A stretch of 64,000 nt of DNA from Escherichia phage vB_EcoM_YN3: the sequence record PV763136.1. One strand, 5' to 3'. Of the stretch, positions 28,605 to 32,750 are shown piece after piece (within the stretch, counting starts at the first letter, position 1; each line of letters opens with the position of its first letter). The position numbers and the translations under genes were made by a program. Below the pieces are notes generated by a model. That model was not told the DNA's origin, did no database searches, and was given only the letters and a program-made list of their open reading frames with translations.

Positions 28605-31600
28605 TTAGTCGTGAGACTCGTTCCAAGGTCCCTGGAAGCTAGAGTTTGAACGACTTACTATCACAGTGGGACAGGAGATTGTGACACCTGTCACGCTCGA
28701 CGTTGACCACGGTGTGTAAATCTCGATAACAATGTCTATAGTTTGTTCACCCAGACCTGTTATCCCTACCGCACACATGCCGTTGTTGTCGTTAAAATAC
28801 TTCTTGCCAGCAAGGATCTGATGACCAGCTATCCATGCATTCAGTTGGGAGCTGGCAAGAGTACCGTTCAGTTTAAAGAAGAATGTTACGTTCTTACCCT
28901 GACCTGAAACGTTATCTACGTATCTCCACCTCCAACGGCAAACCCTTTGCTGAGAGTTATATACTGGAGCACAATCCCCGTAAGTCCTGTGTGCAACAAT
29001 TGCACCTTCGAACTGGTTGGCACGGATAACAGAAGCTTCTACACGACCACGGAAGGTACCTCCGGTTGCATCTATGGTGCCTCTAAAGCTACCATTATTG
29101 GCATAAACATCCCCACGGAAGGTACCACTAGTGGCGTTAACTGCCCCTGTGAAGTTACCAGAACTGGCGTTGATGTTGCCTTTCACCCACACATCCATAA
29201 ATTGGGCGTGCCCGTTCTTGTTAATATACCAACCGTATTTATGGTACCCGTTGCCATCGTAGTTGTTTGACGAAATTTCTTGTGCGATCTTGGCAGAGGA
29301 GATCGTGCCATTCTCTATAAAAGCGTCTTTCAAGAACGCTTGGTTGTTCTTGATTGCGAAAGCAAGGGTTGCTGTTCCATTGCCAGGATTGTATACCGCA
29401 AAATTGTTTGCACTAACCATGAAGTAGGATTGAACTTGGCCCCCAGACCCTTCCATCCCCAACTGGATACCTGCAACATATTTATTCCCTGCGGAGTCTA
29501 CCTGTATTTTTGTACCCCACTGAGCATTTACTTTACCCTCTAAGTCGGTCACAGCCTTAGCTGTTGTAGCTACTGCAGCCCTGATCTCGGACACATCGCC
29601 AACACCATCAATGATCTCCTGCTTAGCAACAGCAAGTTCTTGACGAATAGCTGACGCTGTGCCGTTAATCAGATCAACAGTGGCGTTATTAGTTTCAGAA
29701 ATATTCGCAGACAAGTCTTTCTTCGTCTGAGTCAGCTTATTGTCCAACCCAGTAATATTATTGGTGTTGGTTGTAATCTGCCCTTTAGCAGTGGTTAACT
29801 GCTCAGTCAAAGCTGCCGTTTTCTGATTCAACAGGTCAGTTGTGGCCTTGTTGGTGGTAGAAATCAACGTATTAAGATCAGACTTGGCGGTGTTTATCTT
29901 ACCATCAAGCGTGGTGTAGTTTTTGGACACTGTGGCGTTGGTCTGGCTAATCTTCTGGTCAAGAGTCTCAGAAGTTCTGTTCAGCAAGTCCACAGTGGCC
30001 TGGTTAGTGCTCAGAATGCTCGCATCCAACTCAGATCTTTGAGTATTCAACTTGCCCTCTAGGCTCTTATCACCAGCCAGATAGCCTTTTTCAACATCTC
30101 CGATCTGCTCAGTCAACTCGCCCTGTGCAGCAACCAGTTTTTCATCCAACGCCTCTGTTTTCTTATTAAGAAGATCAGTGGTGGATTTGTTGGTTGACTC
30201 AATCAAGGACGATAGTTTAGCACTCTCATTCTGCAGATTGTTGGTCAACTCACCTTTCGTTGCCGTCAGCTTATTGTCTAAAGCCTCGGTTTTCCGATTA
30301 AGGAGATCTGTAGTCGTTTTATTGGTTGATACAATCAGGGAGTTCAGCTCAGAGCTTTCCTGCGCTAAAGCATCTTCCAACTCACCCCTGGTTGAAACAA
30401 TCTTCTCGTCCAAAGCTTCAGTTTTCTGATTTAACAGATCGGTTGTAGCTTTGTTAGTGGTCTGGATTAGAGAAGCAAGCTTGCCACTTTCTTTAGAAAG
30501 ATCATCTGCAAACTTGTTCTGAGTGGCTACCAGTTTCTGATCTAGAGTGGTAAGCGTTCCATTAACGTCCTGGAAGTTGTCGTGGGTTTCTTGGATGAAT
30601 ATTCCAACCCTATCTCCCAACTGAGCATACAGCTTGTCTACTCTAGAGAACTCACCTTCCATGTGGTCAAAAGCCTCGTCAACTCTACCATCCATGTACC
30701 TGTTAAGTTCTGTGACACGATTTTCAACCTCTTCAATAGAGGAATCCAAAGTGCTCATCAACTCTTTATAAGTTTCTGTCTTTTTGAATTCAGCATCTAT
30801 CTGAGGCATCAAATCCTCAATGGAGGTATAGCAGCGTGCAGCACACTCTACAAACTGAGAGCTACCAAAAGCGTTTGTGGTTCGAATATACCAATAATAA
30901 ACCTTATCGTTCTGCAGACCTTCGGATGTCCAAGTTGAACCAACACCCATACGGGTGGCGTTTGAAGTAACGGTTGCATCGCTGGTGTCGGGCAACCTTG
31001 TCATACCAGATGTCCAAAAGTCATACTGGGTGCTTACACTTGCTAAATCCCTGCTGTGTGGAATCAAGGTGATAGCAAAGTATCCCTGCTTAACCTCTAC
31101 AGAAACAGGAGCTTCAGGTGCCTGAATGTTAAACTCGCAGTACGCTTCTGGAGATACACCACCTTTATAAGATGTTGCAACCACGGTTGCTGTGTATGAC
31201 CCTTTGGTCAAGCCTTCTACTCGGACAAACTGCTCAACTGTCTGTGCTGTCCAAACAATCTCTCCGTTCTTTCTTACCTGCACAATATTTTGAGCGTAAG
31301 TCCCAACGTTGTCCCAAGCCAGAACACCGTGAGTTATTTCCCCAGCTTGGAGGACGGAGTATCTGAAGTTTTGCGGTTGAGCTACACCAGATGGAGATAT
31401 CGGAATATCTACATCACCAGAATCCGGAAGTTGCCCTGTGGCATCATTCCACTCTTTAGCATCTTGACGAAGTTTTACCTTGACACCGCCCTTTTTGGTG
31501 AACTCCCATTCAAGAACCCTCATTTCTTGGCCCACTATGCCAATACTTGGAAGATCCATCGTAACGTAACGCCCAGGCTTAAATTTAAAACCACGCATAT

Positions 31601-32750
31601 TGCAGGTTACTTCAATAATCCTGCCAGCTCTGGCACGTCTTAAGAATATTGCAGAAACACGCTGAGCCTGATAAGGACTGGTAACAAAGCGATAATCTAT
31701 ATCAATTATCTTTCTTTCTCCGTCCTTCTCCACCCACTCAGGCACGAACACTGATGGGAAGTCTGTTTCAGAATACCCTTTGGTTGGACTGGTGAATCTT
31801 CCAGTTATTGTGTTCGATCTTTTATCGAAAGATGCTTCCGGATAGATCTTAACCTCACCGCAAACACAGTCCTCACTCAGTGTCATTGTTGCTGGGCCAT
31901 AGTATGCACCTACCAGCAGACCATATTTACCAGCTACATAGCTAAGATCTGCACCACAAGCTTTCAGCATTTCTGCCATAATACTTGCTGGTGCTTCATC
32001 CATGTCAAACTCACCATTAATGGTGTAACGACGCTCACTGGTTCCGTCTGCGTTTCTTACGGCCTCGTCGCATATGTTGGCAGCCTCCTTGAAAGAATCC
32101 CAGTTGATGGTTTCGTCTGGACATCTGAGGTACGTTCTTAAATAATCCAGAATCACCAAGGCAGCGTTATTGGTATACACCTCTTTACTGGTGCGAGGAT
32201 CATAGCACTTTTTACCAACCTTGACAAGTGTGACGTTTGGTAACCCAAAAGGAAACTTGTTAGGGTCGAACTTGAAGCTGGCACGTAGCCAACTGATCCC
32301 TCTACCTATCATGTCTGGTGACCACGATGGGCAGTGTGTCCCCATGAAAGGATCAGCCGTTTTTCTGTCGTTATGTAACTCCCACGATACCAAATCTCCA
32401 TACGAGGAAATAGGATTACCATCGATAAGTATATCTTCTATACCTTCCAGAGGGTGATTGGCAAGAACAATAGCACAATGGAGGGTTTTGTCTCTATCCT
32501 GCTCCAAAAACGCAAGCAATCCAGATGTGCGTGTCTTTCCATACACTACAGAGCAAGGTGCAGCAGAAGATCTGAGAAGCTTTTGTCTATCTTGCTGACT
32601 TCTGTAAGATTTGTTGCCCTCAAAAATCTTATCCAGAGTTCTGGTGGTAACAGTGTTCAGGCTGTCAGCCAGAGCTGCCTTGGATGCGTTCCAGTCATAA
32701 CTTGAAGATCTTGCAGAAGCAACGATGTTATCAATCATTGCAATTGGCAT
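28605..32750 (-). CDS. lambda gpJ-like host-specificity protein with internal tandem coiled-coil repeat array
   Basis: 1381 aa; segments resemble lambda J as I recall it (…APEAPVSVEVKQGYFAITLIPH…, …KYVAGIQLGMEGSGG…); about seven ~35-aa repeats (…STNKATTDLLNQKTEALDEKL…). Confidence 0.5.
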   Translation of the reverse strand: MPIAMIDNIVASARSSSYDWNASKAALADSLNTVTTRTLDKIFEGNKSYRSQQDRQKLLRSSAAPCSVVYGKTRTSGLLAFLEQDRDKTLHCAIVLANHPLEGIEDILIDGNPISSYGDLVSWELHNDRKTADPFMGTHCPSWSPDMIGRGISWLRASFKFDPNKFPFGLPNVTLVKVGKKCYDPRTSKEVYTNNAALVILDYLRTYLRCPDETINWDSFKEAANICDEAVRNADGTSERRYTINGEFDMDEAPASIMAEMLKACGADLSYVAGKYGLLVGAYYGPATMTLSEDCVCGEVKIYPEASFDKRSNTITGRFTSPTKGYSETDFPSVFVPEWVEKDGERKIIDIDYRFVTSPYQAQRVSAIFLRRARAGRIIEVTCNMRGFKFKPGRYVTMDLPSIGIVGQEMRVLEWEFTKKGGVKVKLRQDAKEWNDATGQLPDSGDVDIPISPSGVAQPQNFRYSVLQAGEITHGVLAWDNVGTYAQNIVQVRKNGEIVWTAQTVEQFVRVEGLTKGSYTATVVATSYKGGVSPEAYCEFNIQAPEAPVSVEVKQGYFAITLIPHSRDLASVSTQYDFWTSGMTRLPDTSDATVTSNATRMGVGSTWTSEGLQNDKVYYWYIRTTNAFGSSQFVECAARCYTSIEDLMPQIDAEFKKTETYKELMSTLDSSIEEVENRVTELNRYMDGRVDEAFDHMEGEFSRVDKLYAQLGDRVGIFIQETHDNFQDVNGTLTTLDQKLVATQNKFADDLSKESGKLASLIQTTNKATTDLLNQKTEALDEKIVSTRGELEDALAQESSELNSLIVSTNKTTTDLLNRKTEALDNKLTATKGELTNNLQNESAKLSSLIESTNKSTTDLLNKKTEALDEKLVAAQGELTEQIGDVEKGYLAGDKSLEGKLNTQRSELDASILSTNQATVDLLNRTSETLDQKISQTNATVSKNYTTLDGKINTAKSDLNTLISTTNKATTDLLNQKTAALTEQLTTAKGQITTNTNNITGLDNKLTQTKKDLSANISETNNATVDLINGTASAIRQELAVAKQEIIDGVGDVSEIRAAVATTAKAVTDLEGKVNAQWGTKIQVDSAGNKYVAGIQLGMEGSGGQVQSYFMVSANNFAVYNPGNGTATLAFAIKNNQAFLKDAFIENGTISSAKIAQEISSNNYDGNGYHKYGWYINKNGHAQFMDVWVKGNINASSGNFTGAVNATSGTFRGDVYANNGSFRGTIDATGGTFRGRVEASVIRANQFEGAIVAHRTYGDCAPVYNSQQRVCRWRWRYVDNVSGQGKNVTFFFKLNGTLASSQLNAWIAGHQILAGKKYFNDNNGMCAVGITGLGEQTIDIVIEIYTPWSTSSVTGVTISCPTVIVSRSNSSFQGPWNESHD
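29750..30650 (-). repeat. In-frame tandem repeat array (about 105-nt units) encoding coiled-coil repeats in the J-like protein
   Basis: Repeated peptide units TNKxTTDLLNxKTEALDxKL…ELxxxLxxESxxLxSLIxS visible in the translation; coordinates approximate. Confidence 0.5.

Follow-up and report, generated by a model that had tools for sequence, protein, structure and literature searches.

We analysed a stretch of 64,000 nucleotides (nt) from Escherichia phage vB_EcoM_YN3 (PV763136.1; the whole stretch is hereafter called the window), focusing on a gene at 28605..32750 whose product resembles the host-specificity protein J of phage lambda (gpJ). The gene is a single open reading frame (ORF) with exactly these ends on the minus strand, marked (-) with the coordinates below, and starts with ATG to encode a hub-fibre protein of 1381 amino acids (aa) homologous to rV5 gp37. 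The phage is a Vequintavirus (an rV5-like myophage): the 4146-nt region was 98.3% identical at the nt level to that of Escherichia phage BP9, and 90-97% identical to those of approximately 115 other Vequintavirus records. The minus strand carries all of the large genes from ~19 kb to ~48 kb of the window. According to the annotations of BP9 and of the phages in the BASEL study, they are arranged in the order of tape measure, tube initiator, plug, hub, gpV-type spike, and sheath initiator, followed by three fibre genes, three small genes, the J-like gene, the Baseplate_J wedge, a second wedge protein, and further fibres. Judged from sequence and gene order, the three small genes and the J-like gene are together a complete siphovirus tail-tip cassette, set among the baseplate genes of a myovirus. 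An earlier note on this DNA suspected a mosaic tail tip; our results support the mosaicism, and the presence of a whole four-gene siphovirus cassette goes beyond what the note had supposed.

The first gene of the cassette encodes a Dit-like protein of 196 aa (33728..34318 (-)), which matched PHROG 1302 'distal tail protein' with an E value (E) of 5e-50. This protein was 31-32% identical to the product of the gene directly after the tape measure gene in Seuratvirus, and found no match in Pfam or among the PDB sequences. The second gene (33175..33726 (-); 183 aa from the ATG, with the longest ORF being 33175..33741 and 188 aa) encodes a hub attachment protein of the gpL/BH1P/RcGTA g13 type, which matched PHROG 2048 'tail protein' with an E of 9e-68. 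The AlphaFold2 (AF2) model of the L-like protein, with a predicted local distance difference test score (pLDDT) of 76, was searched with Foldseek and matched the N-terminus of T5 pb3 (3e-06), lambda gpL (8iyk_L; 5e-05), and RcGTA g13 (6tba_7A; 4e-04), as well as the hub-1/tip proteins of JBD30, T1, Chi, and Sf11. A weak match to PF09931 was found in 2 of 8 L-like homologues. The third gene, in the position of lambda gpK (32750..33175 (-); 141 aa from the ATG, with the longest ORF being 32750..33187 and 145 aa), encodes a DUF6950 protein, for which PF22262 (E of 2.7e-33) was the only Pfam match. Eight aligned homologues shared an NlpC/P60-like W-G-x-x-D-C motif with invariant D36-C37, as well as RGDxV, and showed no conserved His; the 141-aa neighbour is annotated as an NlpC/P60-type cell-wall hydrolase in the BASEL study. 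The DUF6950 protein evolves fast within the genus, with an identity of 60% (10553-10978 of the compared record) against 82-92% for Dit, L, the J hub, and the wedge. The earlier note placed an HxH spike gene next to the J-like gene, but the adjacent gene is this one, which has no HxH motif, and the real spike gene lies 9.5 kb upstream of the J-like gene. For the three small proteins, PDB searches with the sequences and with an 8-sequence profile gave nothing significant, the fold search with the L-like model being the only one to match, and NCBIfam gave no match. Translational coupling within the cassette is seen in the stop/start overlap TAATG, in which the DUF6950 stop lies on the J start, behind identical GGAGGT ribosome-binding sites.

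The same set of genes encodes the tail tip of certain siphoviruses. In blastp comparisons, the four window proteins were 31, 38, 45, and 53% identical to the products of bas25_0017-0020 of the Seuratvirus VogelGryff, and the two sets were collinear. In VogelGryff and Hafnia phage yong3, the tape measure gene is followed by a gene for a 194-aa protein, a second one for a 194-aa protein, one for a 144-aa protein, and one for a 'J-like tail tip protein'. Altogether, this four-gene order was found in seven siphoviruses, including those of Serratia, Providencia, Vibrio, Pseudomonas, and Roseobacter. The cassette in the window, on the other hand, lies between the gene for a 1267-aa fibre and the wedge gene, 11 kb away from the tape measure gene.

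The J-like protein starts with a hydrophilic N-terminus predicted to be disordered (residues 1-63; 32562..32750 (-); pLDDT <50), which is followed by a baseplate-hub fold of the pb3/gpJ/BH2P type (residues 64-437; 31440..32561 (-)) with pLDDT values of mostly 85-95. The AF2 model of the hub, made from an alignment of 23 homologues (pLDDT of 77 overall), was searched against the PDB with Foldseek. T5 pb3 was the top match, with an E of 4e-24 and a query-normalised TM-score (TMq) of 0.68-0.70, and DT57C, lambda gpJ (E of 5e-17), Chi, RcGTA g15, T1, and JBD30 were among the further matches. The siphovirus hubs matched the model with E of 1e-24 to 1e-13 and TMq of ~0.5-0.7, whereas the matches of myovirus hubs (MuSO2, Mu, and Milano) were weaker, with an E of ~1e-8 and a TMq of ~0.3. 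A sequence profile of the hub region reached pb3, the T1 tip protein, and GTA g15, and the hub was 59% identical to that of the Seuratvirus J.

Beyond the hub, Ig_J/FN3-type domains (residues ~471-652; 30795..31340 (-)), an alpha-helical coiled-coil shaft (residues ~653-1064; 29559..30794 (-)), and a Phage_Tail_Tip domain (former DUF1983; residues 1059-1199; 29154..29576 (-)) follow one another. In Pfam, PF24489 Ig_J_second (1.3e-30) and PF09327 Phage_Tail_Tip (7.9e-39) matched above their cut-offs, while PF24421 Ig_J (3e-05) scored 24.5 bits and stayed just below the gathering cut-off of 29 bits; PHROG 31 'central tail fiber J' matched with an E of 2e-160. The phmmer comparison with lambda gpJ (E of 3.3e-28) aligned residues 497-678 with J 666-844, and residues 1065-1218 with J 850-991. 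These two blocks are adjacent in lambda J, with ~6 residues between them, but are separated by ~390 residues (679-1064) in the J-like protein. Residues ~1197-1240 (29031..29162 (-)) comprise 11-residue G-x-F-x-G repeats with self-comparison offsets of 11, 22, and 33, for which a beta-helix-like structure is likely. There are four to five copies of G-x-F-x-G-x-(V/I) after the Tail_Tip domain, and they are like the short beta-helix repeats that end the conserved part of lambda J. The remainder (residues 1241-1381; 28608..29030 (-)) is a Cys-containing, genus-specific, and conserved C-terminal domain, which by its position is presumed to be the receptor-binding tip. The C-terminal 156 aa were 92-100% identical across 116 Vequintavirus records and gave one faint match elsewhere, and no relative of the domain (~1240-1381) was found in the PDB. 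Thus, the likeness to lambda gpJ at both ends, which the earlier note described, was recovered with Pfam, PHROG, phmmer, and the hub fold, except for the extreme C-terminus (~1240-1381), which is not J-like.

The J-like protein is a member of the J/pb3 (BH2P) family by its structure, but it lacks the marks of a working siphovirus tip, namely adjacency to the tape measure gene, a hydrophobic N-terminus, and an equivalog-level lambda_TipJ score. Against NCBIfam NF049904 (lambda_TipJ) it scored 147 bits, over residues 497-883 only, while the cut-off is 1950 bits; thus, we regard it as a relative of lambda J and not as its equivalent. The earlier note also expected the Phage-tail_3 and FN3 domains. 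The latter are represented by the Ig_J/FN3-type domains described above, while Phage-tail_3 (PF13550) had no match at E<=1 in the current Pfam. The homologues that are 45-51% identical are prophage proteins annotated as 'tail tip protein J-related', and these carry PF13550; the rV5 genome paper lists PF13550.1 for gp37 (PMC3606486). No match to the fibre families of the T4 gp34-37 and P2 gpH/Mu gpS types was found for the J-like protein in Pfam, PHROG, or PDB, and the Mu gpS-like short fibres of the same phage are encoded by other genes. The J-like protein may nevertheless work like a lateral fibre.

The shaft contains a repeat array of ~306 aa (aa 760-1065; 29556..30473 (-)), which lies near the place predicted in the earlier note and agrees with the predicted size of about 300 aa. 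The array consists of six units that share the motif TN-x-[AT]T-x-DL[LI]N, the first three being tandem units of 44 aa and the rest being more widely spaced. The six copies, in the fuller form TN[KQN][ATS]T[TV]DL[LI]N, were found at aa 765, 809, 853, 915, 966, and 1020, with spacings of 44, 44, 62, 51, and 54 aa. The main offset in the self-comparison was 44 aa, with further offsets of 88, 157, and 201 and an 11-aa period near residue 1200. The repeat signal lay far beyond the shuffled controls: the best 15-aa self-match scored 70, while 200 shuffles reached 46 at most, and 299 windows scored at least 35 against a shuffle mean of 0.3. Thus, the repeats are real, but they are six units with a basic period of 44 aa and spacings of 44-62, and not the roughly seven repeats of about 35 aa proposed earlier. 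The hydrophobic periodicity over residues 646-1065 was 3.64, corresponding to hendecads (44 = 4 x 11), and the shaft gave weak matches to Apolipoprotein, Spectrin, and SpiroCoCo. At the DNA level, the copies were 44-71% identical, with 14 nt as the longest exact word in common. Tandem Repeats Finder (TRF) reported no array in the DNA, the repeats being visible at the protein level or as DNA families of 62-72% identity, and the near-identical head-to-tail copies that would mark a slippage-prone locus were not present in the array. Some siphovirus J homologues are also very long, such as those of Providencia phage PSTCR7 (1347 aa; 3357-7400) and Vibrio phage 1.056.O (1176 aa; 3444-6974); the TN..T.DL.N motif was found in neither of them.

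The J gene spans 4146, 3840, or 3600 nt among the 116 Vequintavirus records, encoding proteins of 1381, 1279, and 1199 aa with six, four, and three repeat motifs, respectively. The 4146-nt and 3840-nt classes together account for 69 records, and about a dozen carry the long allele of the window. Relative to the latter, the allele of rV5 and Bas52 (1279 aa) lacks exactly 88 aa, or two 44-aa units, plus a further 14 aa, while that of Bas55 (1199 aa) lacks further unit-sized blocks. The identity of the shaft to that of the window protein was 82% in Bas52 and 50% in Bas55, whereas the parts outside the shaft (the N-terminus, hub, FN3, Tail_Tip, and C-terminal parts) were 97.5-100% identical to those of the window protein. 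The variation in the J-like protein is thus confined to the shaft, and the variable fibre length suggested in the earlier note was found in the comparison of isolates. The shaft alleles look, from their sequences, like old recombinant alleles rather than recent changes in copy number. The BASEL study reported strong allelic variation in two large fibre genes, for which the authors proposed variable distal ends (PMC8594841). One of these two is probably the J-like gene, as estimated from the coordinates; in contrast to the proposal, the J-like protein has a variable shaft and a constant end.

An alpha-helix rises by 0.15 nm per residue, and at this rate the coiled coils of the six-, four-, and three-unit alleles would be ~63, ~47, and ~36 nm long, respectively. 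The particles of rV5 show thin tail fibres of 70 nm, with which the rV5 allele, having a coiled coil of ~47 nm plus the other domains, would be compatible. Disrupted J genes were found in two phages: V18 (KY683736) has an out-of-frame deletion of 1345 nt from residue ~641, which removes the shaft and the start of Tail_Tip, and Pr121LW (MH752840) has a frameshift near the C-terminus. If these disruptions are real, the distal fibre would be dispensable in culture, unlike the siphovirus J.

The cassette is flanked by two terminator-promoter units of ~100 nt (28500-28604 and 34319-34417), which are ~60% identical to each other and share, without any difference, both the terminator stem-loop CCCCGCTTCGGCGGGG and the extended -10 (AAAAT.TGGTAAAATA). 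At the left boundary, an intrinsic terminator (GCCCCCGCTTCGGCGGGGGC plus a T-run; 34391..34410 (-)) ends the 1267-aa fibre gene, and an extended -10-like element (TGGTAAAATA; 34349..34358 (-)) ahead of the Dit-like gene is the putative promoter of the cassette. At the right boundary, an intrinsic terminator after J (AAGCCCCGCTTCGGCGGGGTTT plus a T-run; 28577..28598 (-)) is followed by the promoter-like TTGACT-17-TAAAAT with a TG extension (28533..28561 (-)), which belongs to the second copy of the unit and lies ahead of the wedge gene. The 64-kb window has three copies of the 15-nt terminator core, with 0 expected, and four of the extended -10 element, with 0.15 expected; the further window sites listed with these elements are 2418-2432, 48486-48495, and 52007-52016. 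The wedge gene, confirmed as the Baseplate_J-like neighbour named in the earlier note, is the downstream neighbour of the J-like gene and encodes a myovirus baseplate protein of 496 aa homologous to phi92 gp145 (27009..28499 (-)). Mydovirus KpS11 has a single equivalent unit before its wedge gene. The presence of two units here and one in KpS11 would fit the insertion of the cassette at such a unit, accompanied by duplication of the unit.

We examined the distribution of the cassette by tblastn searches of 50,697 phage records with the J hub, DUF6950, and Dit as the queries. Each of the three detected ~116 Vequintavirus records at identities of at least 90-95%, and nothing between 60 and 90%. 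All of the weaker matches listed or inspected were in genomes of 31-128 kb in which the cassette follows the tape measure gene, and related myovirus genera were not among them. The closest relatives of the three small proteins outside Vequintavirus were those of Queuovirinae siphoviruses. The wedge protein, on the other hand, has relatives in Mydovirus (KpS11; 60% identity) and phi92 (32% identity). In neither KpS11 nor phi92 was the cassette found between the sheath initiator and wedge genes, where fibre or spike genes are located, and these sister phages without the cassette keep the same hub, spike, and wedge genes. In a divergent lineage of Vequintavirus represented by P0101, of which the baseplate proteins are 80-92% identical, the cassette is at the same place, with identities of 82% for Dit, 87% for L, 84% for the J hub, and 87% for the C-terminal part of J. 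The cassette has thus remained in place and diverged together with the baseplate genes, suggesting vertical inheritance since its acquisition. P0101 was considered as a closer donor because of its 87% identical L-like protein, but was rejected, being itself a divergent member of Vequintavirus in which the genes are in the same order. We infer, for the direction and manner of the transfer as for the event itself, that the operon passed from a Queuovirinae-like siphovirus to an ancestor of Vequintavirus. This is read from sequence comparison, and we hold the homology and the acquisition more firmly than the functional reading below.

Altogether, we propose that an imported siphovirus tail tip now serves the myovirus baseplate as an accessory fibre that varies in length, a reading that we consider probable without regarding it as settled. 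The J-like protein would be a trimeric hub-plus-fibre protein, encoded by the last gene of a coupled operon for the Dit-like, gpL/BH1P-like, DUF6950, and J-like proteins, and the operon would have been inserted at the terminator-promoter unit that directly precedes the wedge gene. The myovirus appears to retain its own tube initiator, hub, and iron-binding spike, so that the imported tip most likely no longer closes the tail tube. The accessory fibre would be mounted on the baseplate with the vestigial hub and the remodelled Dit-like and L-like proteins as its base, from which two FN3 domains, the hendecad coiled-coil shaft, a Tail_Tip/beta-helix neck, and the conserved C-terminal receptor-binding domain would follow outward. 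The shaft would have been built from 44-aa (4 x 11) units, with old unequal recombination and the exchange of alleles giving rise to the three length classes. With three shaft lengths and an invariant tip, the reach of the tip would differ between isolates. We infer, rather than observed, that the fibre is accessory (non-axial) in its location, that it is trimeric, that its C-terminal domain binds the receptor, and that the shaft length has any selective value.

The signs of repurposing are found in the proteins themselves and in the rest of the baseplate. All of the seven siphovirus J proteins examined have a hydrophobic, Gly/Ala-rich N-terminal stretch of ~45 residues, of which the Vequintavirus J keeps only 'MPxAxI' before continuing as a hydrophilic sequence; over 19-aa stretches, its hydropathy peaks at 0.31, compared with 1.7-2.2 in the siphovirus proteins. 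Relative to VogelGryff, the identity amounts to 32% for Dit and 38% for L, while it reaches 59% for the J hub. In the pairs of siphoviruses with J-hub identities of 55-65%, the corresponding values are 51-61% for Dit and 54-69% for L. Thus, the proteins presumed to contact the tube and the tape measure have changed most, as expected if the docking partner was changed. The phage encodes a gp27-like hub of its own (42940..43938) and a gpV-type central spike of 225 aa with a C-terminal HxH motif (42263..42940 (-)), which ends in ...GHTHSCPDGETSGPH and is identified by PF18352 on an orthologue and by the phi92 structure paper. In the latter, the orthologues of the hub and spike form the closed apex. 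As the phage has its own hub and spike, the axial position is likely taken. In rV5, gp37 was found in virions by mass spectrometry with 4 peptides and a coverage of 4.2% (PMC3606486).

We also consider, more tentatively and at somewhat less than even probability, that the particles carry one or several complete domesticated siphovirus tip complexes, each built of a J-like trimer and an L-like trimer together with a Dit-like protein as ring or adaptor. In such a complex, the former hub would act only as a socket, and the invariant receptor-binding tip would be held out by a hendecad coiled coil of tunable length.

Several points weigh against the reuse of the tip as an accessory fibre. The rV5 mass-spectrometry list of 19 proteins, searched by molecular weight, does not contain gp38-40 (the DUF6950, L-like, and Dit-like proteins), and it is difficult to see where a hexameric Dit ring would fit at the baseplate periphery. 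In the RBPseg study, low-resolution cryo-electron microscopy (cryo-EM) of two BASEL Vequintavirus phages placed only three fibres near the baseplate, and the J-like protein is not reported among them (PMC12143355). The phi92 structure is uninformative on the location of the J-like protein, because phi92 has no cassette. Furthermore, the higher divergence of Dit and L could reflect a mosaic donor instead of adaptation, the fibres of 70 nm on rV5 might be made of a different long fibre protein, and the deletion in V18 and the frameshift in Pr121LW could be assembly errors.

If the J-like trimer were instead located on the tail axis as the true central fibre or tip, with or distal to the gpV-type spike, the tail would end in a hybrid axial tip. 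A hub fold that is fully kept and 59% identical to functional siphovirus tips would be in line with this, as would the retention and conservation of the Dit-like and L-like partners, since such proteins stack on the tail axis in siphoviruses. However, the complete set of tube initiator, plug, hub, and HxH spike is present and orthologous to that of phi92, in which the spike is the closed apex, and the sister genera function without the cassette. In addition, the hydrophobic N-terminus of the siphovirus J proteins has been lost, and V18 appears to be viable with a truncated J. We regard the axial location as improbable, and the J-like protein is probably not the tip of this tail, given the phage's own gp27-like hub and gpV-like HxH spike and the sister phages without the cassette. 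The J-like protein might also be the only one in use, forming an ordinary lateral fibre while the products of the three small genes are assembly chaperones or relics outside the particle, which we find unlikely, albeit less so than the axial location. Such a use would agree with the absence of gp38-40 from the rV5 mass-spectrometry list and with the fast evolution of DUF6950 (60% identity against 82-92% for its neighbours). Lambda gpK, an assembly factor that is not in the virion, can be counted for it as well. Nevertheless, conservation across the genus amounts to 82-100% for the Dit-like and L-like proteins, of which the reading frames are intact and translationally coupled, and the mass-spectrometry survey was shallow, listing 19 proteins and covering gp37 itself by 4.2%.

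We see hardly any room for the idea that the cassette no longer plays a part in infection and is carried along as a dispensable or decaying passenger. The disrupted J genes of V18 and Pr121LW would agree with it, but all four reading frames are kept in over 110 records, with aa identities of 92-100% outside the shaft, the cassette has promoter-like and terminator elements of its own, and the J-like protein is present in rV5 virions. Equally improbable to us is that the repeat array is a contingency locus, in which slippage or frequent unequal crossing-over shifts the copy number within populations. The alleles fall into three discrete length classes and differ by whole units, in one case by exactly 2 x 44 aa, as such a locus would produce. 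However, no TRF array was found, the DNA copies are 44-71% identical with a longest common word of 14 nt, and the alleles differ by 18-50% across the shaft, pointing to old alleles exchanged by recombination. Thus, the ongoing slippage raised in the earlier note is not supported, because the DNA copies are too diverged for it.

If the particles do carry complete domesticated tip complexes, what crossed from one tail morphotype to another and gained a new job was a whole tail-tip organelle rather than a fibre domain alone, and the complex may match a fibre or density still lacking an assignment in the cryo-EM maps. With gp37-gp40 regarded as one imported tip module, there is a concrete four-protein unit to seek in baseplate maps, as well as a clear case of an organelle of several proteins being transferred between tail types. 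As the allelic variation lies in the shaft and in discrete lengths, the effect of fibre reach on host range is testable by allele swaps. The rV5-like phages are among the most commonly isolated phages of E. coli and are candidates for therapy and biocontrol, while the assignment of genes to their many fibres is still unsettled (PMC8594841).

Two additional observations were made on the surroundings of the cassette and on the database records. A Tail_spike_N (TSP1/Gp66) N-terminal domain was found in both a 222-aa protein (40856-41524) and the 1267-aa Peptidase_S74 fibre (34418-38221). This domain serves the attachment of branched tailspikes in other phages, and its presence in the two proteins suggests a branched fibre network beside the cassette. 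Besides, 18 unannotated GenBank records named 'Campylobacter phage' (host C. jejuni; MG065635-MG065690) were 92-96% identical to the 4146-nt region, and are probably mislabelled or derived from contaminating coliphages.

The J-like gene itself is not new: its product is a known structural component of rV5-like phages, and annotations routinely call it J-like. Orthologous genes are present at the same locus in rV5 (gp37) and the other members of Vequintavirus, with nt identities of 92-98% outside the shaft, and the window J represents the long allele (1381 aa and six motifs) relative to those of rV5 (1279 aa and four motifs) and the APECc02-type phages (1199 aa and three motifs). The family has been annotated as 'tail fibre protein (host-specificity)', 'tip attachment protein J', 'central tail fiber J', and 'lateral tail fiber protein with fibronectin type III domain'. 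The rV5 paper of 2013 noted the similarity of gp37 to COG4733/Phage-tail_3 and a Mu gp44-like hub match in HHpred, and its gene table lists gp38-40 as 'conserved hypothetical proteins', with the best matches in the siphovirus PY54 or a Proteus genome (PMC3606486). The RBPseg study, in its accessible part, defines a class TC5 for a fibre of Vequintavirinae and one of Tempevirinae, with 'large coiled-coil domains' and an N-terminal beta-sandwich region 'common in central tail fibers'; this part contains no location of the TC5 fibre in the maps and no mention of upstream Dit/L/K genes or length alleles (PMC12143355). The TC5 fibre of Vequintavirinae is probably the BASEL orthologue of the J-like protein, for which RBP_55 and RBP_22 are candidates. 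No description of gp37-40 as a siphovirus tip cassette was found in the literature searched, with papers in subscription journals not excluded. Three points thus appear to be new to this literature, namely the imported gp37-40 cassette, its bracketing by a duplicated unit, and a unit-wise length polymorphism confined to the shaft.

Among the known systems, the cassette of Queuovirinae (Seuratvirus/Nonagvirus; VogelGryff bas25_0017-0020) has the same four genes in the same order, and its J aligns with the window J over the hub, FN3, and Tail_Tip. The two differ in that the Queuovirinae cassette follows the tape measure gene and ends a non-contractile tail, whereas that in the window lies among myovirus baseplate genes. 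Furthermore, the Queuovirinae J has a hydrophobic N-terminus, a short coiled coil, a total length of 879 aa, and a different C-terminus. The comparable sets of lambda (gpJ with gpL, gpK, and gpM), T5 (pb3 and pb9), Chi and Sf11 (BH1P and BH2P), and RcGTA (g12-g15) include proteins that resemble the hub and the L-like protein at the level of the fold, albeit with identities to the window hub of only 10-16%, and the split of the hub into L and J is shared with lambda and GTA. Lambda gpJ matches the J-like protein also at the sequence level in the FN3 and Tail_Tip domains. Compared to lambda gpJ, however, the window J has ~390 extra coiled-coil residues, no C-terminal domain of the LamB-binding type, and the context of a contractile tail.

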